A DNA stretch of 64,000 nt from the NCBI GenBank assembly GCA_965216315.1, contig CBDCFN010000016.1, forward strand, positions 1,280,001 to 1,344,000, written 5' to 3'. Both the position numbers and the translations under genes were made by a program. Origin of the DNA: a bacterium. GTDB lineage: Bacteria > UBA10199 > 2-02-FULL-50-16 > JAJFLM01. Shown piece by piece: positions 5,733 through 37,149 of the stretch; the first letter of the stretch is position 1; every line of letters starts with the position of its first letter. The notes under the pieces are model-generated. The model searched no databases, had not been told where the DNA came from, and worked only from the letters and a program-made list of their open reading frames with translations.

Positions 5733-8447
5733 ATGGGTGTGTTGATGGTGCTAGAGAATATTGCGACTTTTATTGCGGGTGGGCCGTTTCAAGGCGGTTC
5801 GGCGGGCCATGACCCGGTGGTTCATGGGCCCAAACAGCTGGCAGATGGACCGGACAAGCCTGATCACTCTATTGTCATTAAGACGACCGGACTGAAGCTG
5901 GCACAGGGACGAAGTGCTAAGGGAACGACCGTCTGGAAGCAGGTTACGCCGGGCAAGCAAGTCAAAGTAACCCCCCACAGCGAAAAACCCATCTACAAAT
6001 TCGCCTTTAATGGTTCTTCGGCGCAACGCAAAGTCGTGGATGCCGCACTTCGCCAACTTAAAGTGGATCCCAACAGTGTCAGTGCTCAGTTTAACCTGGC
6101 CAAGCTCTATGCCAAACAAGGCAATAAAGCGGCGGGGCAATATTATTACCGGCGGGCCTTCTTAGCGATCGTTGCGACGAAGCAAAAGCCGAGTCAACTG
6201 GAGGAAATTGCCCGGGGTTTGATCGCCACCGGCGATGCATACACGGCGGCTCGCGTTTATCAGTATCTGCTGACGAAAGCCGATAAGGTTAAAGATATTG
6301 AGACGGATGGGATCGGATCCTTTCGCTGGCGCAAACGTCGTTATCTTTCGACCAATCGTCATCACGCCTTTATCAACATTGATACGGCCCTGAGTGCGGA
6401 AAAACGCGTGCAGTTTGCGCGCGCGATGTACGCGCAGGCTCAAGCCGGCAAGGACATTATCGGTGAGTATGAGGCCCTAGGGATACTCAAAGACCTCAAG
6501 GTCATTAACCCGGAGGAGCTGTCACGTCTCCATCAGCTGAGTGGAATGGACGGTGGCGATCCTCAAAAGGTCGACGTGCAGCAGGTTATTGATGCCGCGT
6601 GGAATTATGTAAAGAACGGTCACTTTGACCGGGCCAAACAGACGTACCATTACATTCTTTCGCTGGGTTGGGCTCAGAAACAGCCGCTCAATAAGGATGC
6701 ACGTCTTCTGAAGCTGGAAAAGGCCGTGAGGGCACCGGATCAACACGCCAAGAGTCTCGTTAATAAAAAGATTGATGAGCTGACGAAAAAACTGGCGACT
6801 TGTCCTCGCAAGGACGTGCCGGAGCTGAATAAGAAAATTGCCGTATTGCGCGGGGCTTTGGCGATAGCCAATAAAGTTCCGGCCGGCGATTTTAGTTTTG
6901 GCGATGCCTCTCGAATTGCGACCATAGCCAAAGCTCAAATACTCTTGGGCGCCTTGAAAAAAGATAAGAATCTGCTGGAATCGGGGTTTAAAACGGGTGT
7001 CCTTCTTGACAATATAGCCCGTTATGACAAGCGCGCAAAGATTGCCAAGACGGCTTATCTGCAATTGTTTCCGAAGAGCATGCGGTCTTTTATTGCCTGG
7101 GGTTCGTTGCCGGTCATAGCAGGACGTTATTCCGAAAACACCAAGGGTTGGAGAGCCTATTTCCCCCGACCGGATGTCGTGAATAATTCGGCCGCGATCA
7201 AGGCATTCAATTCACATGATAAAAAAACCGGACAGGGAGCCCAATTAGCGCGTGAGCTTGCGACTTTAATCCAATCGAGCCCAAATGTCTCCGCTCGATT
7301 TGATAATTTAAATGGACTTAAGACCTTTTTTGCCAGCTATAAAACGAAAGTTGATGCGGTCGACTGGAAGAATGTTCAGGCCTATTTTGACGAGGTAAAC
7401 ACGCTTAACGGACAGACGGATGCGTCCAAAAAGCAGCGGCGCATCCAGGAGAGTGTCACCAACCTCCGCCAACTGCACGCTGTGATCAATCGACTTAACG
7501 GCGGCAAAGTCAGCGGCACAGAACTTGATAGTCTCATCAAGGGTCTTAGCGCGATGCCTGGCGCAAAAGAAGTGGCCGGCAAAAACAAGCTCGAGACAGC
7601 CAAGGCGCTGGCCCATGCGATTTATAATTATAATCACGGTCGGCTTGCGGCAGATCTCAACTCAGCTATTAAAGAAGTCGCCAAGCTTCCCGGTACCAAG
7701 GGAGAGTCCTTAAAAGCCCAGGCCAAGCAGATTTTGCGCAGTTTCGGTGGTGATAAGACCGTCGCGCTGAAGAAATTGTTTCATAATATTGAAGTCGAGC
7801 GTATCCGCGGCACGTGTACGGCCTTGATCAAGCAGTTCAAAGCTGCGCGTAAAGCGGACAAGCGGATGGACACCGGGGATTATCCCATTATTCGTCAATT
7901 ACTGTGGCTCTGTGAGAAAGTCACGGGCGATAAATATAAGCATACCGACTTGTTTTTTGGCCGCATGATCAAGGATCTGCAACAGATCAAGTCCGACCTC
8001 AACGACCCGAAGAAACTCGCCTCAGCGCGTGAGAATTTTACAGGTCTCATGCAGGGGAGCCATCTCCAGTTTGTTTTGGCAGACGCGAAGTCAACCATTA
8101 AGCACGACAGCTACATCAATCTCGGTGCGAATATCACGCTCATCGTACTGGGTGGCCTGCTTGCCGCCCCGGTCGGTGTGCTCGCCCAAGCGCGCACCGT
8201 TGCCCTGCTCGGGCGCACGGCCTTGACCGTGAATCAAATCAAATTCGCCGGGGCCGGCGCCAGCATATTAGCGAATGCCGCGGTCTTTACTCAGGTCGAG
8301 GCGGGCGTCGGCGAGGGCAACTGGTTCGGATACAATACGCGCACTGGAAAGTGGGATTTCGCGAGTTTAGGAAAGCGGATGGCGCACAATACGGCGATGT
8401 TCGGGTTTATGCACGGTGCCTTCGGGTTGTATAGTAAAGTACGCTAA
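5733..8447 (+). CDS. Giant protein, N-terminal part: TPR-like helices, coiled coil, start of the hydrophobic core. Continues in the -1 frame into 8438-11587
   Basis: 908-aa ORF from TTG 5721 (ATG 5733). TPR-like DPNSVSAQFNLAKLYAKQG. Ends in the middle of the core shared with 23799 and 31816. Confidence 0.75.
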   Translation: MGVLMVLENIATFIAGGPFQGGSAGHDPVVHGPKQLADGPDKPDHSIVIKTTGLKLAQGRSAKGTTVWKQVTPGKQVKVTPHSEKPIYKFAFNGSSAQRKVVDAALRQLKVDPNSVSAQFNLAKLYAKQGNKAAGQYYYRRAFLAIVATKQKPSQLEEIARGLIATGDAYTAARVYQYLLTKADKVKDIETDGIGSFRWRKRRYLSTNRHHAFINIDTALSAEKRVQFARAMYAQAQAGKDIIGEYEALGILKDLKVINPEELSRLHQLSGMDGGDPQKVDVQQVIDAAWNYVKNGHFDRAKQTYHYILSLGWAQKQPLNKDARLLKLEKAVRAPDQHAKSLVNKKIDELTKKLATCPRKDVPELNKKIAVLRGALAIANKVPAGDFSFGDASRIATIAKAQILLGALKKDKNLLESGFKTGVLLDNIARYDKRAKIAKTAYLQLFPKSMRSFIAWGSLPVIAGRYSENTKGWRAYFPRPDVVNNSAAIKAFNSHDKKTGQGAQLARELATLIQSSPNVSARFDNLNGLKTFFASYKTKVDAVDWKNVQAYFDEVNTLNGQTDASKKQRRIQESVTNLRQLHAVINRLNGGKVSGTELDSLIKGLSAMPGAKEVAGKNKLETAKALAHAIYNYNHGRLAADLNSAIKEVAKLPGTKGESLKAQAKQILRSFGGDKTVALKKLFHNIEVERIRGTCTALIKQFKAARKADKRMDTGDYPIIRQLLWLCEKVTGDKYKHTDLFFGRMIKDLQQIKSDLNDPKKLASARENFTGLMQGSHLQFVLADAKSTIKHDSYINLGANITLIVLGGLLAAPVGVLAQARTVALLGRTALTVNQIKFAGAGASILANAAVFTQVEAGVGEGNWFGYNTRTGKWDFASLGKRMAHNTAMFGFMHGAFGLYSKVR

Positions 8448-11400
8448 GCTCCATCGGTATTAACGTCGCCAAGCTGGGCTGGGCGGGTACTGCTGCTTAC
8501 AAAGCCGGCGCCTTTGCAACGGAGTTTGTGGGCTTCTCTGTATTTGAAGGCTTGAGTCATGCCTATAATAAAATTTCCAAGGATGGGCTGAGCCTTGACG
8601 CCTTAGCCAACTTCGGAAAGGCGTTTACGCCCAAGGCCATGTTGGATCGTGCCGCCTTCATCTTCTTTTTAAAGGTCGGAAACTTCTTGGCGAAGCCGCT
8701 GAGCGAGGCCGTGCAGGGCAAGGTTATGAAGTTTGTCAATGCGCGTTATGCCAAGGAATTTGCGGCGATACGATCCGAGCTCGATTTAGCAACTAAGGAC
8801 ATGGATGCCCTGATGAAGGGGCGGGATAATGCCGCGGCGCTCAAAATAGTGGCCCGTTACGAAAAGGCTTTGTCCCAATTCGGCAAGTTTCTCGAATTAT
8901 CGGGTCAGACAAACGGTTCAGAGGCCAAGAGTCTCAAGTCTTATCTGGAAGGGATTAGTCAGTTGAAGGCGGAACTGAAGGCCCATGAAAAGATATTCGG
9001 CACGGAAAGCATCGCGGACGTCAAAGTATGCCGGGATGGCTTTAGCTATGACATAAGCAAACAAAGTGACTTGGTCTCCGTATTAAAGAGTCTGCCGGGG
9101 TTAAAGATTGAAATCGGCTCCGAAGGGCGCGTTGTGACCCGAAGTCCGGAAGGCAGTGTGTGGGTCTTTCATCCGTCGAGTGTTAAAGGATCGACTCACC
9201 TTACGGTTGCGGCGAAGCGTAATCTTAAGCCGGTAGATCACTCAACCACGAAAACGAAGACGGATCCGATATTTGTTAAGCTCAGCGACCTCCATATGGC
9301 TGGCATCAAATCGCAACATCCGTTGGTCGTTAACGTCATCACCCCGAACCGAAATCACAACCTGGATTATTCCGAGTCATTTAGAGCGAATGTGCTGACT
9401 GGAAAACACGGTACCGATGCCTCGATAGCGCCCGAAATGGCGACTCATGTCTGGGTCGTGGTGCGTGACGCCGTGGCGGCGCGAGAAGTATTGAAACGCG
9501 TGACCGGCAGTGAAACCGGGCAGCTCCCGGAGCGGTTTAAACTGATTGCTCAGGCGGAGTTTGATGCGAATAAGCGAGTAACGGACGCCATCTACGATAC
9601 AATGTACGATGCGCACACCAAGCGACTCAAAGGGACTCCTTGTTCGGGTACCGAACTCGCTTTGATTCGTAACTTTGCCCGACGCTATGAAGCCTGGTTG
9701 GCCGGCAAAACGGCTCACCAACCCAAAACGAGTGCGCTCATTGAGAATCATCCTATTGTCAAGGCCCTGCGAAAGCTTTCGCGTCCTCACGGTCCGCATT
9801 ACTATCGGGATGCGGCTTTTTATGATGCGCTGCCGGCAGGTGGTAAGGTGATCGACGGGGTACCGTACTTTCCACTCATCAAGAATATTAAGGGCCATAA
9901 GTTTCAGCTCGGTTCCGGTCAGACGGTTGAATTCACCGGCCGGGTCTTTGGTCAAGGCAGCGCCTCGACGGTTTATGAGGCGAAGCTGACCAATAGTAAG
10001 GGAGAGGTAACTACCGTCGCCGTTAAAATCCGCGATCATGCAATGGGTGCCGATCCTCTGCACATTGCTAAAGAAATCCGCAATGTTCAGCTGGCAGCAC
10101 GTGAAAAGCTCGGTGGGGTGCAATTTTTTGGTGCTGCCAAAGTGGACGGCCGCTTGGCTATCGTGACGAACGTGACGCCGGGTGTGGATTTCGGACGGGC
10201 GAATCCGCATTGGATTAATGGGACGACAGTCAAGGAGATGAATATCCTGTTTGATAAAATCGAAAGGATCGGGCTTAAGCCTGGTGATTTTCAAGTTACG
10301 ATTGACCGCGACGGTCGGGTTCATCTGATGGACCTTGAAGGCTTGCATGTGACCGGTCTTAAACAGGGGTTCTCGCGCTGGGAGGCGATGGAAGCCCTGT
10401 TGTTGCGCCGTCAAAAGGCGGGCCTCAACACGGATGTTATTATCAGTCATTTAAGTACGGCCCAAAAAATCGCCTTCGCGACGCATTTGGTTCAGAATCG
10501 CGGCTGGAAATCGCCCCAGGTCGCCAAAGTATTCGGCCCGAACATTTTCGATAGTCATTACCGCGGCAAGGTCGATAAAGGATCTGTCGCTGTTCTCTCG
10601 AATAAGGCAAAGGGCGAGATTAAAAGCCCGGAACCGGAACCCGCCTGGATGCGTTCGGCGATTGATTTTCAGTCTTTTGTCGTCAGGACGGGCGCTGATG
10701 TCCGTGGCTTTGTGAAATTCTTCAGACCTGAGAATGATGGCCATTACGAATTCAATAAGACGGTGGATTATATCGCTAAAACGGACCTGAATACACTTAT
10801 GACGGAATTTGGGTGGACGCGGGAGCAGGCAACTCGCATTAAAGAGGATGCATCTACCTTTCGCCCTAACTTGAATCTCGTAACGAAGTGGAACGATCAA
10901 TTTCATAGCAAAAAACAGGATGCAGCAGCCATAAAACGGGACATTTTATCAAGGCTTTCGGAAGCTGACTGCGCACGTCTTAATCGTAAAATGAAGGCGA
11001 TTGTTACACAAGGCAGGCAGGGTAACTCGAAGGTGACAATTCCCATGTTGATTGAAGCCTATATTTCGGCACACCTGAGAGGCTCGTGGTTCAATAAAGC
11101 CGTACTTTCCTATATGGACATCTTAAAGAAGGCCGAGAACACCTTTCTGTCACTACAAGCCGACCTTACAAGCAATGTTGTGGCAGATCGTTCGGTTTCA
11201 TTTGAGCTCAGTTATCCAACTATGAAGCAGGTACTGCAGAAACGTTACATTGATCCGGCAAATCCTGATCAGAGTTTTTCGAATGGATCACCTGAGTCAT
11301 GGGCCGGTCAATTGATTGCGGTAGAATTTTATAGCCCGCATCCGGATAAAAGTAGTGTTTTGTTGCTGGCTAAATTTAAGCAAAATAAAGGCTGGTCCGT

Positions 11401-11587
11401 CCAAGGAATGTCAACCGTTAACGGGCAACGACTTGTGGTTACAATACCACCGAAGCAAGCGCCGGCGGCTATGGCTATGGGCTTCTTCTCGCCGGTCGAT
11501 ATGCAGCCGGGTCAAGCGGTGACAATAACGATTAACATAAGTAAAGTTCCAAGCAAACCAGCCTTGAAAACAGCGCAGGGAGAGTAG
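8438..11587 (+). CDS. Giant protein, C-terminal part: rest of the core, kinase-like domain, WKS module, unknown C-terminal domains
   Basis: Frame open from 8438. GQGSASTVY...VAVK...PGDFQ...LMDLEG kinase-like motifs at ~9950-10340. Confidence 0.75.
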   Translation, partial: STLSSIGINVAKLGWAGTAAYKAGAFATEFVGFSVFEGLSHAYNKISKDGLSLDALANFGKAFTPKAMLDRAAFIFFLKVGNFLAKPLSEAVQGKVMKFVNARYAKEFAAIRSELDLATKDMDALMKGRDNAAALKIVARYEKALSQFGKFLELSGQTNGSEAKSLKSYLEGISQLKAELKAHEKIFGTESIADVKVCRDGFSYDISKQSDLVSVLKSLPGLKIEIGSEGRVVTRSPEGSVWVFHPSSVKGSTHLTVAAKRNLKPVDHSTTKTKTDPIFVKLSDLHMAGIKSQHPLVVNVITPNRNHNLDYSESFRANVLTGKHGTDASIAPEMATHVWVVVRDAVAAREVLKRVTGSETGQLPERFKLIAQAEFDANKRVTDAIYDTMYDAHTKRLKGTPCSGTELALIRNFARRYEAWLAGKTAHQPKTSALIENHPIVKALRKLSRPHGPHYYRDAAFYDALPAGGKVIDGVPYFPLIKNIKGHKFQLGSGQTVEFTGRVFGQGSASTVYEAKLTNSKGEVTTVAVKIRDHAMGADPLHIAKEIRNVQLAAREKLGGVQFFGAAKVDGRLAIVTNVTPGVDFGRANPHWINGTTVKEMNILFDKIERIGLKPGDFQVTIDRDGRVHLMDLEGLHVTGLKQGFSRWEAMEALLLRRQKAGLNTDVIISHLSTAQKIAFATHLVQNRGWKSPQVAKVFGPNIFDSHYRGKVDKGSVAVLSNKAKGEIKSPEPEPAWMRSAIDFQSFVVRTGADVRGFVKFFRPENDGHYEFNKTVDYIAKTDLNTLMTEFGWTREQATRIKEDASTFRPNLNLVTKWNDQFHSKKQDAAAIKRDILSRLSEADCARLNRKMKAIVTQGRQGNSKVTIPMLIEAYISAHLRGSWFNKAVLSYMDILKKAENTFLSLQADLTSNVVADRSVSFELSYPTMKQVLQKRYIDPANPDQSFSNGSPESWAGQLIAVEFYSPHPDKSSVLLLAKFKQNKGWSVQGMSTVNGQRLVVTIPPKQAPAAMAMGFFSPVDMQPGQAVTITINISKVPSKPALKTAQGE

Positions 11588-12915: not shown

Positions 12916-12977
12916 GTGTTCAACTGTCCACTGAAAGCGCGGTTTTCGCCCAACTGAGTTCTATCAATTGCCGATAA
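12916..12977 (+). promoter_or_regulatory. Upstream box GTGTTCAACTGTCCACTGAAAGC plus GCCGATAA -10
   Basis: Near-identical copy of the 5616-5677 architecture. Confidence 0.7.
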
Positions 12978-13058
12978 TTAAGATAACGCAGCAATAGTGC
13001 GAATTGGGTGTAACTTTTTGAAAATATTGACTTAACCAGAGAGTCCTGGAGGTGTGTC

Positions 13059-13874
13059 ATGGCAGTGCAAGGTGTAGATCGAGTCGAGTCTGGGGTTAAA
13101 TCACAATTAGAGCATAGGCCTTTGGTGATGCCGGCGGAAACTTCCCATATCGGAAAATCTGTGGCCGCTGATAAATTCAGTGCACGTGCGACCAATAGAC
13201 AAATGTTGGCGAATCTCAATGGGGGTGGTTCTACGGCCCTTCGTCGGACGCCACCGAGCACCATTGAATTTCGCCGCGTTAAAACACCGAGTGGCAAGCA
13301 AACCGTTAGTGGCTTGGCCGTTAGAACGCAGATCAATGGGATCAGCTATGAGATAGAAGGCTATAACGTCTTTCACGCCTTCCGTTACCGTCGTGTCGGT
13401 ACGATGCGATGGACGAATGTCACCAAGGGACGTAGGGATCCCCTACAAGCCGAGATAAAAAAGGCGTGGTATAATACGGTACGCGGGGAGACGCGCTTCG
13501 AATCCAAACTCTACGCCGATATTTGGTATAGTTCAAGGTCGGGAAGGGGAGTGGCACGGCGTCATATTGGCCGTAACGGCAATGCAAGCCGTGCATTTTA
13601 TCGCTATGGTTCCTATCAAGGACCGGTGTTCAAGCGAGGTAACGATTATGTCCTATTCCATAGGAGTGGCAATAGCCCTTTTCCAAAATATCACATGATT
13701 GTCGGTACGGGGATCAATGAGCAGACCGGGCAGTTGACGGGAGTGCGTCTAGTGACCCCTTTACGTATCCGTGGTATAACCTCAATGCAACACTGGTTGA
13801 GTCTTTCCTCGCATGTTGCGAGTTGGCCCAAAGCTCGAGTCCCTTCACCGACGGGTTACGCCGGCTCTCACTAA
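13059..13874 (+). CDS. Hypothetical, Arg-rich basic protein
   Basis: 271-aa ORF with GGAGG RBS before the ATG. Confidence 0.7.
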   Translation: MAVQGVDRVESGVKSQLEHRPLVMPAETSHIGKSVAADKFSARATNRQMLANLNGGGSTALRRTPPSTIEFRRVKTPSGKQTVSGLAVRTQINGISYEIEGYNVFHAFRYRRVGTMRWTNVTKGRRDPLQAEIKKAWYNTVRGETRFESKLYADIWYSSRSGRGVARRHIGRNGNASRAFYRYGSYQGPVFKRGNDYVLFHRSGNSPFPKYHMIVGTGINEQTGQLTGVRLVTPLRIRGITSMQHWLSLSSHVASWPKARVPSPTGYAGSH

Positions 13875-14948: not shown

Positions 14949-15042
14949 TGTATCGTTTCGATACAGCCTGGGGACTCCTCCCACCTCAAGATATCCCTAA
15001 CTAACCAATATTACTTAAGAATAGTTTGGCACTCTCCTTGCT
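14949..15042 (+). promoter_or_regulatory. Sigma-54 promoter TGGCAC-TCTCC-TTGCT (15027-15042) with palindrome TGTATCG-TTT-CGATACA (14949-14965)
   Basis: Canonical -24/-12 consensus. Perfect inverted repeat starts 78 bp upstream. Confidence 0.8.
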
Positions 15043-15084
15043 CTATAGAGGGGCAGAATTACTGTTCACGCATGGAGGTTTCCA

Positions 15085-15522
15085 ATGAGTTTTTTAACCG
15101 TCGCCGCACCTATCCTACACGCCGTTGCAAATGGCTTATCAGGAGTCGCTCAAGCTACTGCAGCAACCGCTCCTGCACAGCCGGCGAACAATGCAAATGG
15201 CAATGCCAGGTTTATTGCGGATGCGAAGCCAAATGATGCGCTACGCGTTGTGGAGCAACGCAATACTGATAATCAAGCGGGTGGTTTGCTCATCCAACCC
15301 AATCGCGGCACCGGTGGCTTCAATGTCTATTACAAGAAGGGGATGAAGGGCAAAGAAATCGTCATTCATAAACACAAACGCAATGCGACTGCGGCGGACA
15401 AGCCCAGTCTCATCTACCGCGGTGCCAAGATCACCGAAAATGAGAATGGGTATCACAATCTGAAATTACCGACCCCTGAAGAAGGCTACTATTACACGGC
15501 GCAGATCGTCGAAGCGAGTTAA
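15085..15522 (+). CDS. Hypothetical protein with Ala-rich N-terminus
   Basis: 145-aa ORF with GGAGG RBS, downstream of a sigma-54 promoter. Confidence 0.7.
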   Translation: MSFLTVAAPILHAVANGLSGVAQATAATAPAQPANNANGNARFIADAKPNDALRVVEQRNTDNQAGGLLIQPNRGTGGFNVYYKKGMKGKEIVIHKHKRNATAADKPSLIYRGAKITENENGYHNLKLPTPEEGYYYTAQIVEAS

Positions 15523-15559
15523 CAGCTGAACTACTATCAAATCAGAAAAGGATAAGATC

Positions 15560-17467
15560 ATGAATTTTCAATCACAACTTCGATATATCATTGCAATCGC
15601 TGTTTTCGCTTTAGCGACGGCCCTTGTTCATCACACGGCCTTTGCCGGTCCGGCCGATCTTGATACGGAATTTGCTGACAACGGGGTGATGACGTTGGAT
15701 TTTGGGCTTGAAGAGCAAGCCAGTGTTTTACTTATTGAGGAAGATTTGAACGGCCTGCGTTTTGTCGTGGCCGGTCGTCAGTGCAAGCTCGGTGATTTCG
15801 GGGACTGCGACTTTCTCGTCGCGCGCATCCAACATGATTTCCAAATGGATCAGAGTTTTGCGTCCGATGGCTGGACGACAGCCTCCATGGGCATGTCTAG
15901 TTACGTCAGCGCGGCGGCCTTTACGCCTTCCGGTGAAGTTTTAGTCGTCGGTGACAGAAAGGAAGATGAATTGATCGGGGTGGACCATGACTTCGCGTTG
16001 GCTCAATTCAATGAAACAGGCGAACTCGATACGTCATTCCACAGTGACGGTAAGGTCATGACCGGTTTCGGTGATTATGAAACGCCCTGGGATGTTGCCA
16101 TACAACCTGATGGCAAAATTATTACCATCGGTCGTCAATATCAGACTCCGACGTTTGGCGATACGGATTACGACTTCGCTATAGCGCGATATCATGCGGA
16201 TGGATCCTTAGATAAGAGCTTTGACGATAACGGGAAGCTGGTTAAAGGTTTCGGAAAGGACGATCATGCCTACGCCGTCGCGCTGCAAGTCGACGGGAAA
16301 ATTGTCGTTGCCGGACAAACCGGACGCAACTTTATCGTGGTACGCTTCAATCAAGATGGGCGTTTAGACAAAGGCTTTGGCGATGACGGCAAGGTCGTTG
16401 CCCAATGGGGATCCGGTGAGATCTACGAAGAGGCCAATGATATCGTAATTACTGCGAATGGTCAGATCCTGGTCTCAGGGGTCGCAACGATCGGCGGCAA
16501 CAATGATTTTTTGGTAGCGAGACTCAATGCCGATGGGTCTTTTGATAGTTCGTTTGGCTCAGGCGGTTGGATTGCCGCTGATTTTGACGGCCGGAATGAT
16601 CGCGCGGATACGCTGATGATCGATGATGAAGGGCGTATTCTCTTAACCGGCTGTTCTCAGCAAAAGTTTGCCGTGGCCCGTTTTTTTCAAAATGGCATGC
16701 CGGATAAATCTTTTGGCGACGGTGGCCAAGCCTTGAATGAGGACCAAGACTGTGGCGCAGCCGCCCTGGGACCCGGTGGCCGTATCTTTGTCGCGCACTC
16801 TGTAGACAATGGAAATAACTCAGATGTGCAACTCGTCGCCTTTAAAGGCAGCTCAGAGGAGAATGGCTTTTCCTTGGATTTGACTGATTTAGCCGTTGAT
16901 GCCCAGGAGCTCGTCCCGGTCTACAAGGCGGACCTGCGGCTTGAAATAAGCGATGCGCAGGATCCGGTCGAAAGTGGCTCCGAGCTGGGTTATGCGATTC
17001 GTATCAGCAATCTGGGGCCCAATCGTGCGGACAATATCGTCTTGTCAAATGAATTGCCGGCCGGTGTCAGCCTGAAAGAGATCGATTTCCCTATAGGTTC
17101 TTGTACAACGACAAATCCCATCGTCTGCAATTTTAGTGAATTAGCTGCTGGAGTAACGATGACGGGAACGATGCTCATCGAAGTAGGGGGAGCCGGTTTT
17201 ATCGAAACGACGATGACAATCACGAGTGATGTCATCGATCCTGAGCTGAACAACAATCAGGCTACCGAAATGACGGCGATAACACTGCCACCGTTGTCAC
17301 CTGAATCCACACCGCCGGAAACGACTGTCCCCACGGAACCGACGGTCACGACCCCGGAAGCCCCTGCGAATAGTGACGCGGCCGGTAATGTGGACGGACC
17401 GAGCTTCGCGGGCGAGAATACCAGTGCCCAACGTGCCGGCGGAGGATGCTCGCTAGTCCGGAGATAG
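15560..17467 (+). CDS. Secreted/surface protein: delta-60 repeats, DUF11 domain, Pro/Thr linker, GGGCSL C-terminal sorting tail
   Basis: Signal peptide, repeated ARxxxDGSLDxSFGxxG/QPDGKI, DLRLEISDAQDPV...NNQAT, and AGGGCSLVRR tail. Confidence 0.85.
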   Translation: MNFQSQLRYIIAIAVFALATALVHHTAFAGPADLDTEFADNGVMTLDFGLEEQASVLLIEEDLNGLRFVVAGRQCKLGDFGDCDFLVARIQHDFQMDQSFASDGWTTASMGMSSYVSAAAFTPSGEVLVVGDRKEDELIGVDHDFALAQFNETGELDTSFHSDGKVMTGFGDYETPWDVAIQPDGKIITIGRQYQTPTFGDTDYDFAIARYHADGSLDKSFDDNGKLVKGFGKDDHAYAVALQVDGKIVVAGQTGRNFIVVRFNQDGRLDKGFGDDGKVVAQWGSGEIYEEANDIVITANGQILVSGVATIGGNNDFLVARLNADGSFDSSFGSGGWIAADFDGRNDRADTLMIDDEGRILLTGCSQQKFAVARFFQNGMPDKSFGDGGQALNEDQDCGAAALGPGGRIFVAHSVDNGNNSDVQLVAFKGSSEENGFSLDLTDLAVDAQELVPVYKADLRLEISDAQDPVESGSELGYAIRISNLGPNRADNIVLSNELPAGVSLKEIDFPIGSCTTTNPIVCNFSELAAGVTMTGTMLIEVGGAGFIETTMTITSDVIDPELNNNQATEMTAITLPPLSPESTPPETTVPTEPTVTTPEAPANSDAAGNVDGPSFAGENTSAQRAGGGCSLVRR

Positions 17468-23682: not shown

Positions 23683-23688
23683 AATAAC

Positions 23689-23783: not shown

Positions 23784-23798
23784 ATGTAGTTTACTGTC

Positions 23799-28017: not shown

Positions 28018-30066
28018 ATGGGTGGAAATGCCGCAGTAAAAGGAAACCGCAAAGGCTATGGAGCCAGGCCTACTCGTGCAAACAGTACGACCTCGGCTAA
28101 AAAATTTAAAGGGAGTCCTGTAAAGGTTAAAATCAATACGACAACAACAACCAGCACAAGTGCCCACACAAAGCAGACACCGAATAAAACGTCCGCTTCA
28201 ACGACTGAAGTGAAGATTACGGATCTTGATGTGTACTCAATTGCAACGGAAAGCACACCGGCTACATATCAACGTACGGTCGCGCCAGCGCCCAAACCTA
28301 AGCCTCAACAAGTATCAGCACCGGTAACGGTCCGCCTCGATATGTCAGTTCGGGCACTGAACTTGATTCAAAACGCCAGTCAAATAAATCCGTTTTTTTC
28401 AACTTTGGCTGACTTCGTACGCAAATCTCCTGGGAAATCCCTCGCTAACATGACAAAGTCCGAACGCACAGCAATCCCCGGGAGCGCCTGGAAACAGTTT
28501 TCTATCAACATTAACAAGCTCTATGCGCTTGGTGTACATCATAATGACGTCAAAAGATCTAATATCACTTGGGATGGCCATACACTCCGCTTGATAAATT
28601 TCCAGAAGGCCGAATTAGGGGTTCGTTCTATCGACGATTTACGACGCGCCCAGAAAATCCAGCACTATGATATAGAAAACCCTAAAGCCAACCCGCTGGA
28701 AAGCAAGATGGCCATCAAGGATCGTCCGACAGCTCCTGTCTTTGGATTGGAGCAGGGTAAGATCTATCTGGAATTTCCTAGCGATACGGCCAAGCTAATC
28801 CTTAATGCGAAAGGCGGCATGGTTCCAATAACTCAAAATGGAAATAACTATAAAATCGAGAATAAAAGTAGCGAAGACATCTATCTTTTTCGCGGCGGTG
28901 ATTCCAAGCAATTTGTCATCATTGGCAAAGGACAAAGTCGTGTTGCAACCCATAATGACGTACTCCAAATCGGCCAGGGGAGCTATACCCTGAGAAAAAC
29001 GACCGATCACGCTGGAGCAGTTACGGGCCAAATAGGAAAACGAACGGTCACGATTGATTATTTACCCTTGCCGCCTAAACAGCAGGCCCCGGGCAATCAT
29101 CAGGCTCCCATCTCGGGTCAGGTAAGCGCCAAACCTCGCCAAGGACCCACAGTACCGAAAACAGGCGACGCTAAGGTCATCGTGGCAAATCAAACAACAC
29201 CTTATCAACGTCATCGATTGTCTCCGCAGCAGCAAACAGTTGTTGATCAGTGGCTCCGACAACATAGCTTAAAACTTGCACAACTGACGCGTGAGCAGCA
29301 AATTAAGCTCGTCCAGCATTTAGTCCTGTACCATAATTGGAAAAGTACGGATATCGCAGCGCTGACCGGTCACGCTGAGCTACAAGTTCTTTACAATAAC
29401 TATGTCATTCAACCTGCCAGCATTGTGCGGCGAATACTTGGATGGCTGTTAGGGACCAGTTCCGGTGGTAATGCAGGGGCTCACTTGTCGGGAACGCGAA
29501 AAGTCGAACCATGGATGTACTACAATATCATCGATGCGCCCCGTAATGCCAGGCTGTGGATCGATGGCAAGTGGGTCGACGTTCAAGCTGTTTACGGCAA
29601 TCAGGTGACTTATTCCTATATTGATAGGAGTGTCGTTCCCAAGCGACGGCTTACCCGCACAACCCCGCTGACCAAAAAGATGTTGCTCGCGACATTTGCC
29701 GAGTTGCCTATCAGCCAGATTCATCCGACTGAAAATGGGCTCTCTCCGATACGATATGCTGCGGCTCATAAATATACGGATATTCCGATATTGGTTTATC
29801 GACATTTCAAGTCAGATGGCTCGGTTGAGTATTACGCTCTGGATGGACACCATCGCCTTGCAGTACTGGCAAAATTGGGGCGAAAGAGTGTTCGCGTGCG
29901 CTTTGCGCCTTCAGATATTTCACGTATACAGGATTTTCTGAATAAACCCCGCAATCCGGCAATGCCGGTTCCGCGTCATGCCAAGGACTTAGAAATCTGG
30001 CAGGCACGCTATGATGATTACCGAGGGGGTCCCGGCGGAGAACCGATGACATCAGTCAATCCCTAA
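28018..30066 (+). CDS. Cargo-like protein: shared N-terminal tag, degenerate kinase C-lobe, FHA-like segment, WKS module, ParB/Srx-like domain
   Basis: HNDVKRSNI...LINFQKA, NDVLQIG, LDGHHRL. Confidence 0.78.
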   Translation: MGGNAAVKGNRKGYGARPTRANSTTSAKKFKGSPVKVKINTTTTTSTSAHTKQTPNKTSASTTEVKITDLDVYSIATESTPATYQRTVAPAPKPKPQQVSAPVTVRLDMSVRALNLIQNASQINPFFSTLADFVRKSPGKSLANMTKSERTAIPGSAWKQFSININKLYALGVHHNDVKRSNITWDGHTLRLINFQKAELGVRSIDDLRRAQKIQHYDIENPKANPLESKMAIKDRPTAPVFGLEQGKIYLEFPSDTAKLILNAKGGMVPITQNGNNYKIENKSSEDIYLFRGGDSKQFVIIGKGQSRVATHNDVLQIGQGSYTLRKTTDHAGAVTGQIGKRTVTIDYLPLPPKQQAPGNHQAPISGQVSAKPRQGPTVPKTGDAKVIVANQTTPYQRHRLSPQQQTVVDQWLRQHSLKLAQLTREQQIKLVQHLVLYHNWKSTDIAALTGHAELQVLYNNYVIQPASIVRRILGWLLGTSSGGNAGAHLSGTRKVEPWMYYNIIDAPRNARLWIDGKWVDVQAVYGNQVTYSYIDRSVVPKRRLTRTTPLTKKMLLATFAELPISQIHPTENGLSPIRYAAAHKYTDIPILVYRHFKSDGSVEYYALDGHHRLAVLAKLGRKSVRVRFAPSDISRIQDFLNKPRNPAMPVPRHAKDLEIWQARYDDYRGGPGGEPMTSVNP

Positions 30067-31815: not shown

Positions 31816-34800
31816 ATGCTATCCATTGCTTTACAACTTAGCAGCCTGGCGAAGAACTTAATCGATAAACAGGCCACAACGGCAAAAAAGTCCGAAGCTG
31901 CCAAAGCGGCCCCTGTTGCAGGGACATCTTTATATGGTCCCGCGCAAGTTCCAGTCGTAGCGGCTAATGGCACCGTAAAGCATTCTCTTTTTGGGGCGAG
32001 CACACTTCAGGCCAGCAGCGATCCGCTTATCACGAGTCTCTTACTCGAAGCCGTTATAGAAGAAGCCCTCGCACCTTATCAAGAGGGAACGCATCACCGT
32101 GAGAGCCGTGAAGGCCTTTTTCAACAGGCCTATGCCGCACTCCTAGCGGACGTCCAATCGAATCCTTCGATGAATATGGCTCCCTATGCAGAGCGTTTCG
32201 CCCAGTTGCAGTTGATGGAACAATCGTGGTCCGCTTTCGAAGCCCTGCGCGAAAGTAAACCGGAACTATTCTATATGACCAAACGTAATGGGGAATTGCT
32301 TCCTGGCAATCATCCGTGGGTTGCTGAAAAATCTGAAGGACTTCAGCTGGATCGCTGTGCCGAGCTCTTTAAGATCGCACTCACTAGCGGCAACCCGACT
32401 GACGTTAAAGTCGCGCTGGAAACGGCACAGGATCTCCACGGCCGTTTAAAACTGATGCTGCAACTCGATGGAGCCCGCGAATTACTCAAAGCCCTCTCCG
32501 ACACGACGGTTCAAACCGGCGAGGTTCCGTTATTACCATTATATATAGCTCCTAAAGGCAAGGATCTGGCACAACTTCACATGGATGAGATCAGTCAGAA
32601 TATTTTCGAACTGGCCTCTGAATTGTACATTGATGACGCTTGCGAAACGATCTCGAAATTGGCGGGCCAACAGGCCTGCAATACGCGTATCTCTTCGGAT
32701 CATGACTTTGGCACGGTTCAATATGCGCGTGCCTATAGCGGAGGACTCGCTACACTCAATATTACTCTGCTTAACTCCACTCCGGCGCAACAGGCATTCA
32801 TCGATTTGCTCAATAGCAATCGTGCCGAAGCGATGCGCGTCAAAGAGGCCTTTGAATATCTGCGTCATCACGGGGAATCGAAGCTCGTGACGCCGAGCGC
32901 CTCAAAGTCGGAGCTGGGCATTGCTAAGCGCCACATGGCGACATTACAGCGTTTCATTTCACGCATCAAAAAGTCTCAAGCTCCCTATGGCGTGAGTCAA
33001 ACCGTACGAACGAAACTTGTTGAACCGGCACTCGCCGACATGAAGCGCTATGATCAAATCGGTTTTGTGCTTAATTCGGTGGAAGGTTCACGGCAATTTG
33101 CAGATAATCCTGTGCAGCTCGCGATAACCCTTCTTGACGATCTAAAAGACGCAGAGGCACACATGGAAGCCTTGGCTGATTATCAAGAGAATGATCAGTT
33201 TATTTATTTGGTTACACGAGGGTGGTACGGCGATCCTAATAAATATCCGAATGATCCGAAGCGCTTTATTTATGAGTTTTTTCTCCAGAACGTAACCACG
33301 GTCGAAATCAAGCCTGAGAAATTAGCACCTGCTCATGCGACGGCATATCATAACTGGAGTGATGACTTGGATCTTCGTAATAGTGATGAAGGTCGAAGTC
33401 CACCAGTCGCAACGGCTTCGGATTGCGGCTATGCGTATGCCCGTCGGCAATTGAACCAAGTCATCAATGGTGAGATTACCGGCGACAAAGCGGTCTCAAT
33501 CTTGACTTCCTGTCTGAGCTACATGAGAGAAATGAGGCAAAAAGCCCTAGTCATGGACATGGCTGTCCATAAAATTGAAGGCGAACGTAATCAGAATATT
33601 GAAGTCGGTCCGACGGATATCGACATCGCTCCTGGTCACGCGGCCGCTATTGCCTGGATTAATGCAACGGGCAACATCACGAGCAATATTGGCAAAATCG
33701 CGGCGGGTGCTCCTCTCAAACTAGCGAGCGCCACCAACTACAAAATTGAACTAGAGCAACAAGTTGAAAATTTCAGAGATCAACTCAAAAAAATACGCGC
33801 GGAACTAAAAGACGGCGGCAAAGGTTGGAACTGGGGCCAAGGCGATTACTACATCAGTACCGCCTCGGTAGATGATTTGATCAAACGGCTCGACAATCTA
33901 GCCAATAGAATCACCTCCGTTGACAGCGATGATGAAGCGGAAATGAATAAGATTCACGGGGAGTGGAAACACTTATCCAGCGCGCCCGTTGTTCAGTTCA
34001 TCTACACTGAAGTGGAAAATATGCATCGCATGAACGGCTGGCGTGATCTCGCCTATGAGGGAATTATTACCGCACCTTTGGCGCTCACGGGAGCCTTTCT
34101 CGTCCGAGGCTTAGCGTCCGTCGCATTAGCCCGCACCGGACTGATGGGAACACGCTTCGGTCGTTTCTTGCTGCTGGGTAGCGAGGCCTTCGGCCTCACC
34201 TTGGCGGGTGATGCCACTCACTCCTTGATCGGACACCATGGCGCTCCCTTGACGGCTGCCGAGAAAGAGGGACTTTCTTTTATCGAAAGGCTCGGCATGA
34301 GCATGGGGATGCTCAAGTTCTTTCATTCGGCCTTGCGTTTTTCCGCCCCTTTATCCGCACGCGCAAGCCAGCGCGTTGCCCTGCGGTCGCTGATGAAGCA
34401 AGGGTATGACCGCGCCTATCTCTTTGGAACCAATGAAGGGCGTGCACTCCTGATGCGCACGATGACCCGTAATATCGTCTCGCAAGGGGCAGGTACTGCA
34501 ATCCGTTTCGGCAGCAGTTATGTCGGCTTTACCGCCTGGGATTTTATCGCGAATACGTATCAAATGACGCGCATGACCGGTGAGTTCAATCCGGGAGCGG
34601 CACTCAAGCAAACAGTCAGTCTCGAAAGTCTGAGAAGTCGCGCGATTATGGTACCGATGTTTGCCGCCTATGGACAATTGCTGCGGCCGCTCGCGACTCG
34701 CAGCGCCAGAAAACAAATGGCCCGTCTCTTCGCTGAAAAGCCGGAACTTGAAACCCAATGGAAGACCCATGAATCGAATGTCGTTGAGGCCCGGGAACAA

Positions 34801-37149
34801 TTTGAAAAGCTGATGAGCGAGACCGAAGGCGGGCTTCGTGCTTCTAAAGAACAGCTTGAGGCGGTCAGGAATAAACTCCGCGCGGCGCTCGAAGCCCGCC
34901 AGAAATTTGAATCCGAGCTACCGGACGGCATTGTGAGCCCGCAGGAGAAGGCGCTGGCCGACAAAACATTGGAGATGACGGCACAATTTGAGGGCAGCTT
35001 GCAGCAGATCAATGGCATTCTCGGCAAGGGAAATGCGCTCGGCATCGTCCAGTTTCGCGAAGGGAAGTTTACCTTTCCGGCCGAACGCAGCGCTGAAGTT
35101 GTGAAGGCGTTACGGGAGAGTGGGGCGGACGTCCACGTGCATCGTAATGGCGTGCTTACCATCAATAAGGGACTGATTCGACTCGTGCCTACAGTACAAG
35201 GCAAGTCAGAAGTTACGCTGCCTCCGAGTATCCGAGTTGGTTCGCATAATTTTGTTATCGCGACTGAACCCATCAAATCTAAGCAAATTCATGTAACCGA
35301 AGCTGAGGCACGGATTGATGGCGAGCAAATTATAATCAAGCTACGTAATGGAGTTGAAAAAATAGTTGATTCGCGCCTTGTCACTCGATCTTTTCGTAGG
35401 GCAATACAAAAAGCTAAGACCGTCTTCCTCATTCCGTATGTTGCCGGTGGAAGTGGCGTTGATTCTATGTCGGCACGCGGAGCTGTCGAAGTGCGCCAAG
35501 GGAAAGATATCGTACGAGAAGCACAGCGCATCTTAGAGCATGAATATGGTGTAAGTGTCCCGACAAAAAAATTGCAGCGTTCTTATCATCGTGAAGTGGC
35601 CCCGCAATACAAAGGCGGGAATGGTCGGAGAAATACTGGTCGCCTGGATAATTATGGTGAACAGGTTTCTACTCTGGTTTCGCTTTATGTCGATGGTACC
35701 GGTCAAAGAGGCGCTAAATCAATTGCTGATGTCGTTACGACCCTTGTAAAGCGATCGCAAGATACACTTGATCTTGCAGTCCCTGACACAGCTAATCAAA
35801 TCTTCGCTTCACATGAAAAAGTTCTGCTCACCAAGAAGCTTACGAAACTTCTAAGAGATCACGGTGTAACAGATTATGATTTACTCCCTAATCATGTTCG
35901 ACTCAAGTTCGAAAGGCGTGCAATCGACCGTGCGAACAATTTCATTAGCGAATACTGGGCTGATGCGTCCGGCGTACTCGAATTAAATTGGACAGCCGAG
36001 TACGATGCAATGGTTTCATATCATGCTGGAGTTCAATTCGTTAAACATAATGGGCAGACTTTCGTTCGTGCCCAAAAAATAACAATCAATGGTAGGGAAC
36101 TTACTCACGGTCGCCTGATTAAACTTCAAGATGGGGATACCGTCAAGATAGGAATAACTTACTATGCTAAGTTGAATGAGTCATTCCAACGTATTACCAA
36201 AGCTGAAAATGACGCCAAAATCATCACAAAAACTGATACGGGACTGATCGTAGATAACGGTGATGGAAATGTTACTAAGGTAAGCACGGGAATGACAATT
36301 AGTGATGCTAAAGGAATGCGTCACTTGGACCTTCTCGGCACTGAGCAACAGGCGCTTGCGCTTGCATTAGATCTGGTTCGCGATGGCAAGCTTCCGGAAG
36401 GATTTGTACCACGTCTCGGTGGCCGTGTGGCCCATGACGAACTCATTATTCAGAAAATGGGCGGCAAGACACTTGATAAGATGGCTCCAGCGGAACGTCA
36501 ATTGATTCCCGAGTCAGCCTGGAAAACCTTTGAAGCAAATCTTCATATATTACACGAAGCAGGTCTTGTGCATGGAGACATTCACAGTGGTAATATCGGC
36601 TGGAATCCCAAAAACGGTAACTTGTGGCTCATCGACTTCGGCTTGGCAAAGTTCAAAGCTAATCCTAAGCGGGATGTTGATTCCTATCACAAAATGCGCC
36701 GCAAGATGGAGAAGGTAGACTCGTCAACGGCTGTTACAAAGGCGGGATTGGAGCCAACACAGATTGAACACTGGGCTAAGCAATTTGAACAACGATTTGG
36801 AGAGCCTCCTAAAGAGATATGGATTGTCGGAAGCCATGCGGACGGTTCGGCTACACCTAAGAGCGATATCGATATTATCTTCATTCACTCACGTTTCTCT
36901 GCGGGAGGAACATGGCAAGGGGCGGACAAAGGTATGGGCGACGGATTGGCGCTGACAATGGCATTAAATCCCCAGATTCCATGGGCAGCACTGCATAACC
37001 CGGCCAAGCAAGCCGTTGCATTTCCAGGCTACGGGAACATAGGTAGCGATATACCCAAAGCGGGATTTGTGGACCCATTTTTTGCTGGAGCCCGCAACTT
37101 TATCTGCACTTGGTCAGGTGAGGCTCTTCCCGCAGTAAAACTTTATTGA
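31816..37149 (+). CDS. Giant multidomain protein: shared hydrophobic core, novel domain, FHA-like segment, kinase domain, C-terminal minimal nucleotidyltransferase
   Basis: Start moved to ATG 31816 (AGGAGA RBS; TTG 31786 lies inside the promoter). HGDIHSGN...IDFG kinase motifs. VGSHADG...SDIDI Pol-beta NTase motif. Confidence 0.82.
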   Translation: MLSIALQLSSLAKNLIDKQATTAKKSEAAKAAPVAGTSLYGPAQVPVVAANGTVKHSLFGASTLQASSDPLITSLLLEAVIEEALAPYQEGTHHRESREGLFQQAYAALLADVQSNPSMNMAPYAERFAQLQLMEQSWSAFEALRESKPELFYMTKRNGELLPGNHPWVAEKSEGLQLDRCAELFKIALTSGNPTDVKVALETAQDLHGRLKLMLQLDGARELLKALSDTTVQTGEVPLLPLYIAPKGKDLAQLHMDEISQNIFELASELYIDDACETISKLAGQQACNTRISSDHDFGTVQYARAYSGGLATLNITLLNSTPAQQAFIDLLNSNRAEAMRVKEAFEYLRHHGESKLVTPSASKSELGIAKRHMATLQRFISRIKKSQAPYGVSQTVRTKLVEPALADMKRYDQIGFVLNSVEGSRQFADNPVQLAITLLDDLKDAEAHMEALADYQENDQFIYLVTRGWYGDPNKYPNDPKRFIYEFFLQNVTTVEIKPEKLAPAHATAYHNWSDDLDLRNSDEGRSPPVATASDCGYAYARRQLNQVINGEITGDKAVSILTSCLSYMREMRQKALVMDMAVHKIEGERNQNIEVGPTDIDIAPGHAAAIAWINATGNITSNIGKIAAGAPLKLASATNYKIELEQQVENFRDQLKKIRAELKDGGKGWNWGQGDYYISTASVDDLIKRLDNLANRITSVDSDDEAEMNKIHGEWKHLSSAPVVQFIYTEVENMHRMNGWRDLAYEGIITAPLALTGAFLVRGLASVALARTGLMGTRFGRFLLLGSEAFGLTLAGDATHSLIGHHGAPLTAAEKEGLSFIERLGMSMGMLKFFHSALRFSAPLSARASQRVALRSLMKQGYDRAYLFGTNEGRALLMRTMTRNIVSQGAGTAIRFGSSYVGFTAWDFIANTYQMTRMTGEFNPGAALKQTVSLESLRSRAIMVPMFAAYGQLLRPLATRSARKQMARLFAEKPELETQWKTHESNVVEAREQFEKLMSETEGGLRASKEQLEAVRNKLRAALEARQKFESELPDGIVSPQEKALADKTLEMTAQFEGSLQQINGILGKGNALGIVQFREGKFTFPAERSAEVVKALRESGADVHVHRNGVLTINKGLIRLVPTVQGKSEVTLPPSIRVGSHNFVIATEPIKSKQIHVTEAEARIDGEQIIIKLRNGVEKIVDSRLVTRSFRRAIQKAKTVFLIPYVAGGSGVDSMSARGAVEVRQGKDIVREAQRILEHEYGVSVPTKKLQRSYHREVAPQYKGGNGRRNTGRLDNYGEQVSTLVSLYVDGTGQRGAKSIADVVTTLVKRSQDTLDLAVPDTANQIFASHEKVLLTKKLTKLLRDHGVTDYDLLPNHVRLKFERRAIDRANNFISEYWADASGVLELNWTAEYDAMVSYHAGVQFVKHNGQTFVRAQKITINGRELTHGRLIKLQDGDTVKIGITYYAKLNESFQRITKAENDAKIITKTDTGLIVDNGDGNVTKVSTGMTISDAKGMRHLDLLGTEQQALALALDLVRDGKLPEGFVPRLGGRVAHDELIIQKMGGKTLDKMAPAERQLIPESAWKTFEANLHILHEAGLVHGDIHSGNIGWNPKNGNLWLIDFGLAKFKANPKRDVDSYHKMRRKMEKVDSSTAVTKAGLEPTQIEHWAKQFEQRFGEPPKEIWIVGSHADGSATPKSDIDIIFIHSRFSAGGTWQGADKGMGDGLALTMALNPQIPWAALHNPAKQAVAFPGYGNIGSDIPKAGFVDPFFAGARNFICTWSGEALPAVKLY

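Follow-up and report, generated by a model that had tools for sequence, protein, structure and literature searches.

Polymorphic and MARTX toxins combine a conserved trafficking part with variable toxin cassettes, and this logic of a conserved module with exchangeable cassettes is known. Here, we describe an island of large genes at 5.7–37.1 kb of a 64,000-nucleotide stretch (the window, G000:C16:1280001-1344000) in a 2.96 Mb bacterial genome of 98% completeness (G000). Three of these genes encode a conserved core of about 420 residues and three others share an N-terminal tag. The original prediction took them for a new A/B-type system in which the core is a translocator and cargo is delivered fused or in trans. 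Our preferred reading is that the genes form a regulon of mosaic effectors that are secreted, probably by the type III route, and that the core serves as a putative membrane-insertion module; we judge this reading evenly balanced between right and wrong.

The island proteins resemble polymorphic and MARTX toxins in their exchangeable enzymatic cassettes, paralog clusters and rapid turnover. They differ in that diagnostic repeats or domains and obvious small immunity genes were not seen, and some cassettes of the family (FHA, HTH, STAND) are not toxin-like.

Transmembrane substrates of type III systems (Tir, SseF/SseG, SteD and Inc proteins, and the YopB/IpaB translocators) must, in the account given in PMC9993115, avoid the producer's own membrane. 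Judged from sequence, the core proteins appear to share with them the absence of a Sec signal, one or a few moderately hydrophobic helices, variable cytosolic domains and a non-flagellar type III system in the genome. In contrast to these substrates, they match no known translocator or effector in sequence or fold. Their hydrophobic module lies 300–1,500 residues from the N-terminus of proteins of about 900–5,900 amino acids (aa); in relatives the core begins at about residue 100 to 1,600. The core is no simple hairpin but a ~420-residue conserved domain that includes conserved polar residues. Chlamydial Inc proteins have a bilobed hydrophobic domain of about 40–60 residues near the N-terminus, whereas the hydrophobic module of the core mostly lies 300–1,200 residues in and usually has one strongly hydrophobic segment.

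The Salmonella SPI-2 effectors of the SifA, SseJ, SopD2 and PipB2 group join a conserved N-terminal translocation domain of ~100–140 residues to unrelated functional domains. The tag of the island is likewise an N-terminal region common to otherwise different proteins of one organism, but its motifs differ, it is predicted to be disordered, it is found in one genome only and its export role is putative. Mosaic effectors of Legionella are similar in forming a large, orphan, domain-shuffled set that is spread over the genome and contains many hydrophobic segments; about a third of the type IVB effectors have transmembrane domains according to PMC12981334. Here, however, the secretion system is another one (VirB4 was not found in G000), the proteins are far larger and a dedicated conserved core family is present. 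The sigma-54 and sigma-28 late regulons of Chlamydia trachomatis, as presented in PMC7482065 and PMC10597470, include type III effectors and membrane proteins. The island is comparable in placing candidate secreted or membrane proteins under sigma-54/sigma-28-type control, again in a lineage that has a non-flagellar type III system. It differs in that the phylum is another one, a sigma-28-like gene lies inside the secretion locus, many sigma-54 activators are fused to kinases, and the control is predicted from sequence motifs.

Searches of Pfam, NCBIfam, PADLOC, the PDB and the literature on type III secretion in Bdellovibrionota yielded no description of core, tags or island. What is new is the core family, the lineage-private tags and the occurrence of the family in a phylum where a non-flagellar type III system is universal. 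To our knowledge, hardly any substrates are known for basal (myxobacterial/chlamydial-type) non-flagellar type III systems of organisms other than pathogens. The island offers concrete candidate substrates for a phylum-wide type III system, with a ~420-residue membrane module and private tags, and its two alternative-sigma promoter types could predict the rest of the repertoire. If secretion were confirmed, the island would open a way into the lifestyle of an uncultured phylum, as predator or symbiont; it would also add a new domain for membrane targeting and a natural case of enzymes fused to or split from their carrier.

The core family

Searches covered the 11,442 open reading frames (ORFs) of G000 and a comparison set of 93 genomes including G000; class-level and phylum-level searches gave the identical set. 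In the window, seven large plus-strand ORFs make up the six genes of the island, namely the core-bearing A (in two halves, A1 and A2), C2 and C3 and the tag-bearing T1, T2 and T3 (Table 1). ORF calls together with profile and pairwise matches support the predicted division of six large orphan genes into these two classes. Except for the kinase-like/nucleotidyltransferase end of C3, the window proteins are orphans in Pfam and NCBIfam. The whole genome has 142 ORFs of at least 800 aa.

The core family is rare, and its partners vary. From the own-genome ORFs, a profile of 17 proteins, all taken from other genomes, recovered C2 (E = 3.5e-62), C3 (6.3e-32), a fourth paralog that lies outside the window (6.7e-22) and the A2 N-terminus (3.6e-17), with the next-ranked ORF at E = 0.097; A1 was missed. 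An 18-row profile without A1 and A2 matched the C-terminus of A1 at profile positions 4–154 (1.3e-7) and A2 at positions 191–398 (3e-29), so A holds one core, cut at a variable linker. Pairwise blastp among the window core proteins linked C2 and C3 only (1.7e-6). The hydrophobic core that had been noticed in A, C2 and C3 is therefore a real family whose regions align significantly. Residues 880–1370 of C2 matched large ORFs in 13 of the 93 class genomes, and the 18-row profile detected the core in 38 of the 93 phylum genomes. In a set of 1.84e9 cluster representatives, 185 matched the core at E ≤ 1e-3 and 128 at E ≤ 1e-10; nearly all core-bearing representatives are about 900–5,800 aa long. 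Five outside genomes with a related SctV gave no match to the core profile, in a search that had no positive control.

The core alignment contains a single clearly hydrophobic helix (GVxIVxxxAxTAGxA), then weaker hydrophobic or amphipathic helices in which Asn, Glu, Lys and Gly are conserved, a helical stretch and a small alpha/beta domain. Its AlphaFold model (pLDDT 78, pTM 0.57) consists of helices of 35–50 residues and an alpha/beta end domain. Foldseek returned no PDB match at E ≤ 1e-3, pore-forming and translocation folds included; the best VIA Z-score was 9.6, for a generic three-helix stretch only and below the bar for helical models, and in the ESM Atlas the highest score was 0.90, with few features in common. 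Two ESM Atlas leads, PT-TG and DUF637, scored 0.84–0.86, which is chance level, and were rejected. With no significant structural neighbour the fold was not identified, which is no proof of a new fold. Neither did the core have an identity in Pfam, NCBIfam or the PDB that would make it a known family with a non-toxin role.

Among full-length cores, exactly one segment with KD19 ≥ 1.6 was present in 64 of 84, none in 9 and two in 11. The median maximum KD19 was 1.88 in the core family versus 2.05 for 870 segments of polytopic membrane proteins of G000, and the maxima of C2 and C3 were 1.37 and 1.62, respectively. A moderate hydrophobicity like that of the core family is reported for membrane substrates of type III/IV systems by Krampen et al. 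2018 (PMC6110835).

Gene A had been described as one gene (5733–11587). In the window it is split into two ORFs in different frames, the A2 frame opening a few bases upstream of the A1 stop at 8445–8447. The stretch is present in four public runs, which come from two samples of one study and may be the source of the assembly. Relative to the window, contigs from two of the runs, and a more divergent one from a third, show a net two-base difference within about 10 bases before the A1 stop, which brings A1 and A2 into one frame and makes A one gene in the population. The divergent allele keeps this single frame with 13 substitutions in about 420 bases. Judged from these sequences, the break in the window (8430–8450) would be either an assembly error or a strain variant.

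Modules, tags and fused or split forms

The sequences behind the core are highly variable, as had been proposed, and the relatives showed no invariant C-termini. By Pfam, the C-terminal regions of 16 phylum relatives contained kinase-like domains (2), FHA (2), HATPase_c (1) or nothing (11). The 22 database representatives, a set that overlaps the former in at least one protein, had the HopA1 type III effector domain (2), FHA (4), nothing (10), and one each of kinase-like, Metallophos, HATPase_c, PPDK_N, 2H-SAK, STAND/AAA and HTH_3. In the window, A and C3 carry C-terminal enzyme modules, and C2 is core-only, with a helical N-terminal part of 880 aa, the core and a low-complexity tail; T3 starts 16 nucleotides past it. 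This arrangement agrees with the original prediction.

The structural model of T3 was confident in three parts, residues 110–222, 400–460 and 510–640. The last part (pLDDT 68–91) had human sulfiredoxin as its top Foldseek match (E = 1.2e-3, probability 1.00; target TM 0.57–0.64, root-mean-square deviation 3.0–3.5 over 87–95 columns), with SbnI/serine kinase, ParB and Noc as further neighbours. The same module is present in T1 (E = 9e-14 to T3), where Pfam gave ParBc_2 at E = 0.023 only, and recurs in a core-family protein of genome G001 (5e-27). On its predicted structure, the T1/T3 module belongs to the ParB/Srx fold. The kinase-like part of the T3 model matched Bud32 and Rio1/2. It is related to the C3 C-terminus (2e-9), to a fused core protein of genome G010 (6e-16) and to a 1,892-aa protein of G000. 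The C3 end itself matched APH (25.0 bits, cut-off 23.2), ABC1 (23.2 bits, cut-off 22.9) and Bud32 (1.6e-9) and has a nucleotidyltransferase motif (27.3 bits). From sequence and model together, the C3/T3 module is a predicted member of the protein-kinase-like superfamily (Bud32/RIO/Kdo type), with matches to the C-lobe part only. A second kinase-like module, of the A2 type, occurs in the fused core protein of G010 and in a separate tagged gene of G010 (5e-35).

The C-terminal 540 residues of T1 have counterparts in four other giants of G000 and in two core-family proteins of 4,171 and 5,841 aa, all within an E range of 1e-121 to 4e-57; PADLOC models gave a weak Cas10-HD match in T1 (5e-4). T2 begins at the base right after the T1 stop, with the tag followed by a weakly hydrophobic helix, and no relative was found for its C-terminal 490 aa. 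The unit named 'WKS' is short and helical, with a weak match between A2 and T1 (2e-3) and a weak HTH_22 hint. FHA was not found by Pfam (E ≤ 1) in T1, T2, T3, A2 or the last 607 residues of C3, and at the place in question the T3 model stays at pLDDT < 50. Hence, from the proposed pool of shuffled domains, the ParB/Srx and kinase-like modules were recovered and 'WKS' weakly so, while the FHA-like domain was unconfirmed in the window proteins. The pool also extends beyond the two classes: eight additional G000 proteins (1,157–2,496 aa) with neither core nor tag fall into one similarity component of 14 members.

As the original prediction had stated, signatures of known toxin systems were absent. 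RHS/YD, LXG, PAAR, VgrG, FhaB/CdiA, TPS and PT-TG were not found in Pfam and NCBIfam at E ≤ 0.01, nor in Pfam at E ≤ 1 for T1, T2, T3, A2 and the C3 end, and the window proteins had no RTX repeats or internal cysteine protease domain (Pfam, NCBIfam). PADLOC detected no system-specific model on the island proteins, with generic kinase (PD-T4-6 at 3e-8, MkoA) and weak Cas10 HD matches. No small gene is conserved after A, C3, T1, T2 and T3 on the ORF maps, on which no dedicated immunity-gene search was run.

A short contig, G000:C9:1-5097, contains a near-identical copy of the A promoter region (TGTCCACTGAAAGCCC...GCCGATAAC) before a truncated ORF. The contig, which also encodes a 1,157-aa mosaic protein with a hydrophobic start and two modules that are found in A2 and T1 too, probably represents another island member interrupted in the assembly.

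The predicted N-terminal tag is real: T1, T2 and T3 have ~110 residues in common (pairwise E 2e-11 to 6e-4), with the motifs MG, AKK[FY]KG, E.KI.D.D.Y..AT and VTV. The tag is basic and Ser/Thr-rich and, with a pLDDT of about 30 in the T3 model, is predicted to be disordered. It is found in 3 of the 11,442 own-genome ORFs, these three only, and in none of the 92 other genomes (profile, E ≤ 0.01), so no co-occurrence of tag and core was observed elsewhere. G010 has a different 70-residue N-terminal tag on exactly four ORFs, all between its core genes. This second tag was looked for in G074, G073, G075 and G000 and found in none of them; G074, a congener of G010, has no core either. In the loci of 13 other genomes, N-terminal-only sharing near core genes was seen in G010 only, many contigs being short. 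Other N-terminal-sharing pairs (G073, G076 and G013) are full-length paralogs and were rejected as tags.

Met-Gly starts were enriched among mosaic, core and tag proteins (6 of 16 versus 169 of 2,537 called genes; Fisher's test, p = 4e-4), with the starts crudely called and the three tags being paralogs. The listed Met-Gly starts are those of T1, T2, T3, C2, A (5733 start), the fourth paralog and C16:1804947; the G010 tags start with MGGG.K.TGG. N-myristoylation as an explanation was dropped because position 6 is mostly Lys, which does not fit the consensus.

Core-only genes directly precede giant core-less genes in G027 and G062 (one genus) and four genes with G010's own tag in G010. As originally claimed, the enzyme modules that some proteins carry behind the core are in other cases encoded by a gene of their own, immediately downstream of a core-only gene (T3, C3 and G010). 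Together with the second, independent class of tags, these fused and split arrangements make it plausible that tagged and core proteins are physically linked, and they keep the carrier/cargo idea alive. The giant core-less proteins of G027 and G062 (L048:10659-19001, L044:1-7895) begin with an EF-hand-like loop, DRNADGKIDRKEI, a start that differs from the basic tag.

Promoters, the secretion locus and rival explanations

The sigma-54 motif TGGCAC-N5-TTGC[AT] occurs at 56 sites in the genome versus about 3 expected under uniform composition, and nearly all are intergenic and upstream of genes. Five sites lie in the window, before orf15085/g15560, T1, C2, C3 and g39732, and another precedes the fourth paralog. 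In total, 8 of 16 mosaic, core or tag genes of G000 have such a site. The site before C3 puts its translation start at ATG 31816, where it had been predicted. In relatives, sigma-54-like motifs precede core or tag genes in 6 of 13 loci, and at least one motif is present in 7 of 13; the motif of locus L042, at 6260, is just inside the called start of the core gene. An enhancer palindrome, TGTATCG-N3-CGATACA, stands upstream of three adjacent sigma-54 promoters, and AT-rich TGTATAC-type repeats similar to those of C3 lie upstream of g39732. The genome has five copies of the palindrome. The other two (G000:C16:1237388, 1242110) flank C16:1237434-1241312, of the kinase-TPR-GAF-sigma-54-activator type, which by its sequence is a candidate autoregulated activator of the island. 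G000 encodes a 16-member family of Ser/Thr-kinase-TPR-GAF-sigma-54-activator fusions (800–1,700 aa).

A, g13059 and g1844 have promoters of the CAACT-N15-GCCGATAA type (sigma-28-type), and A and g13059 have an upstream TGTCCACTGAAAGC element in common. GCCGATAA occurs at 232 genome sites versus about 90 expected, 32 of them intergenic with a gene within 150 nucleotides, and this promoter type also precedes two orphan genes of the type III locus. Elsewhere in the genome, at G000:C16:2159000-2174000, every gene in a run of seven on the minus strand has a CAACT-N15-GCCGATAA-type promoter to itself, with a conserved TTTGCGAA-like element before each promoter.

G000 contains a complete-looking non-flagellar type III export locus outside the window. 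Its components (339–361 kb) are SctV, D-like, J, L, N, O-like, P/FliK-like, Q, FliO-like, R, S and T. It further encodes small TPR chaperone-like proteins (best match LcrH/SycD, below cut-off), a FliA/WhiG-family sigma factor (1.3e-38, below cut-off) and, directly downstream, five orphan proteins of 460–717 aa. The genome has a single FHIPEP gene; flagellin, VipB and VirB4 were not found in it. FHIPEP is present in 91 of the 93 phylum genomes and flagellin in 12 (11 over the cut-off). The closest SctV proteins outside the phylum are those of Archangium metagenome-assembled genomes (53%) and chlamydial ones (46–49%). A TLC transporter was not found, with an uninformative control.

The secreted-effector reading draws on several of these observations. 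The six window proteins have no strongly hydrophobic N-terminal segment of the Sec type by KD19, used here with no signal-peptide predictor, save the TTG-start form of A1, whose first 22 residues reach about 1.5–1.6. The N-termini of mosaic, core and tag proteins are polar, and their nucleotide-dependent modules need a cytoplasm. The fusion of HopA1 to the core in relatives, the extreme turnover and the use of two alternative sigma factors, one of them (sigma-28-like) encoded inside the secretion locus, point in the same direction. As a mechanism, the core would stay soluble in the producer and insert in the target-cell membrane, where it would hold nucleotide-using modules (kinase-like, ParB/Srx-fold, HD-like, nucleotidyltransferase and others). 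The exchangeable enzyme modules would be supplied fused behind the core (A, C3) or from a separate adjoining gene (T3 after C2). The tag may be a lineage-private export or chaperone-binding signal, or it may serve for docking and so stand in for a covalent bond with the core protein.

Several points weigh against this reading. We infer secretion, its route, membrane insertion in the target cell and the role of the tag from indirect indications, and no RNA runs are listed among the public sequencing runs that hold the stretch. The maximum KD19 of A1 (2.05) and of the fourth paralog (1.98) is like that of ordinary inner-membrane proteins, and proteins of 2,000–5,900 aa are very large for type III substrates. 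The needle protein (PF09392) and an SseC-type translocator (PF04888) were not found in G000, with uninformative controls, and the secretin match was below cut-off. The apparatus may therefore be needle-less and of the Myxococcus kind; PMC12428579 describes a needle-less type III system of the basal kind in Myxococcus, with unknown substrates. As the type III system is near-universal in the phylum, its co-occurrence with the core in 38 of 93 genomes tests nothing. Lastly, the fused HTH_3, STAND NTPase, FHA and HATPase_c domains fit signalling or defence in the producer's cytoplasm equally well.

These last modules make a producer-internal role a serious rival, which we nevertheless rate as improbable. 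The island would then encode giant membrane-anchored signalling or conflict (defence) proteins that are not secreted, with the core as an inner-membrane anchor or membrane-disrupting effector, and the kinase, FHA, HD, nucleotidyltransferase, STAND and HTH modules would act inside the producer cell. The domain set (FHA, kinase-like, HATPase_c, STAND NTPase, HTH_3, 2H phosphoesterase, HD and MNT-like nucleotidyltransferase) is typical of signalling and defence islands, the genome is rich in kinase-TPR-GAF-sigma-54 activator fusions, and the A1 and fourth-paralog segments are as hydrophobic as ordinary membrane helices. C2 and C3, however, stay under the level of the own membrane proteins, PADLOC recognised generic kinase and HD matches only, and an effector domain, HopA1, is fused to the core in 2 of 22 relatives. 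The genes are also co-regulated with those of secreted surface proteins and have a promoter type in common with the secretion-locus orphans, and their turnover is extreme and lineage-private, with no T3 homologue found among 5.8e9 proteins within the 375–1,194 aa length range. Secretion by type I or a still unknown system, with no functional link to the type III locus, is a very improbable alternative. It would account for the unrecognised needle and translocator and for the Sec-exported proteins in the sigma-54 regulon, and very great length is more usual among type I substrates; but Pfam showed no RTX or other repeat-type C-terminal signal (no search was aimed at type I components), and VipB and VirB4 were not found.

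Self-contained A/B delivery, in which the core inserts and carries cargo across, either fused or recruited in trans through the tag, appears distinctly unlikely. In its favour, fused and split versions of modules adjoin core genes in each of three genera, the two lineage-private classes of tags are independent of one another and each confined to a core-gene island, and the C2-T3 and G027/G062 gene pairs are spaced for translational coupling. One hydrophobic helix among long amphipathic helices may resemble the general build of soluble-to-membrane toxins, and the failure to recognise a canonical translocator in G000 argues weakly in the same direction. On the other hand, the core fold had no pore-forming or translocation match, and the cargo translocation by the core that was originally proposed stays hypothetical; Pfam and NCBIfam revealed no receptor-binding or self-cleaving protease domain. 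The tag is missing from all 37 other core-bearing genomes, T1 and T2 form an operon separate from that of any core gene, and the same modules occur in about ten giants with neither core nor tag. The dedicated export machine in the genome makes a self-contained mechanism unnecessary. A bolder proposal, which we think unlikely, is that the core is a new phylum-restricted membrane-docking or conduit module onto which private tags plug separate enzymes, each tag recognising its cognate core. On this view, a single carrier/cargo device would exist in a fused and a split state, and it might supply the translocator/effector layer that is missing from a basal needle-less type III system.

Feature coordinates and neighbouring genes

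Table 1. Features of the island, its promoters and related loci. Positions are those of the window unless given with a contig.
Feature	Position	Strand	Remarks
A1	ORF 5721/5733-8447	+	core protein A, first half
A2	ORF 8528-11587	+	core protein A, second half; frame differs from A1
T1	17824-21663	+	tagged
T2	21664-23682	+	tagged
C2	23799-28001	+	core-only
T3	28018-30066	+	tagged
C3	ORF 31786/31816-37149	+	core fused to enzymes
Core in A	about 7956-8441 (A1) and 8465-9094 (A2)	+	by profile
Core in C2	26436-27797	+	by profile
Core in C3	about 33910-35163	+	by profile
Fourth core paralog	G000:C16:731623-738360		outside the window; 2,245 aa; sigma-54 promoter upstream
Tag of T1	17824-18159	+
Tag of T2	21664-21990	+
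Tag of T3	28018-28341	+	predicted disordered
A1 N-terminal region	from 5721 (TTG) or 5733 (ATG, MG...)	+	helical
A2 kinase-like module	about 9848-10387	+	matches G010 tagged gene and G010 fused core protein, E about 1e-35
A2 'WKS' helix module	about 10370-10663	+	followed by orphan C-terminal domain
T1 ParB/Srx-like module	about 18481-18909	+	after the tag and a weakly hydrophobic helix
T1 'WKS' module	about 19741-20028	+
T1 C-terminal 540-aa module	about 20041-21660	+	with HD-like part
T3 Bud32/RIO-type kinase-like module	about 28345-28683	+	from model and Foldseek
T3 beta-rich middle	between kinase-like and 'WKS' modules	+	model not confident
T3 helical 'WKS' module	about 29215-29400	+
T3 ParB/Srx-fold module	about 29545-29937	+	from model and Foldseek
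C3 g1844-like domain	about 35430-35970	+
C3 kinase-like module	36442-36669	+
C3 nucleotidyltransferase	36778-36897	+
Sigma-54 promoter, co-regulated operon	15027-15042	+
Sigma-54 promoter, T1(-T2)	17766-17781	+
Sigma-54 promoter, C2(-T3)	23768-23783	+
Sigma-54 promoter, C3	31775-31790	+
Sigma-54 promoter, g39732	39663-39678	+
Enhancer palindrome	14949-14965, 17687-17703, 23689-23705		at -78/-79 of three adjacent sigma-54 promoters
Sigma-28-type box of A	5670-5677	+	motif
g1844	1837..3037	+	397 aa orphan; sigma-28-type -10 box GCCGATAA at 1837-1844
g13059	12970..13874	+	271 aa orphan; sigma-28-type promoter as A
Co-regulated operon	14949..17467	+	palindrome, sigma-54 promoter, orf 15085-15522, protein 15560-17467
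g39732	39663..42080	+	782-aa Cys-rich protein; N-terminal hydrophobic segment at residues 7-27
Non-flagellar type III export locus	G000:C16:339000-372000		outside the window; complete-looking

Residues 111–299 of the g1844 protein matched residues 1216–1393 of C3 (blastp, E = 4e-33). The larger protein of the co-regulated operon is a secreted beta-propeller/DUF11 protein with Pfam matches to DUF5122 (4e-36) and DUF11 (1e-16). Amid the island genes, the minus strand encodes a 335-aa protein at 13876–14883 with C-terminal TPRs and a weak transglutaminase-core match (E = 0.004, below cut-off).

The G+C content falls to 0.44–0.47 at window positions 22000–26000, compared with 0.50–0.55 in the surroundings. 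The coding strand is A-rich over T1-C2-T3, with an AT skew of up to 0.18.

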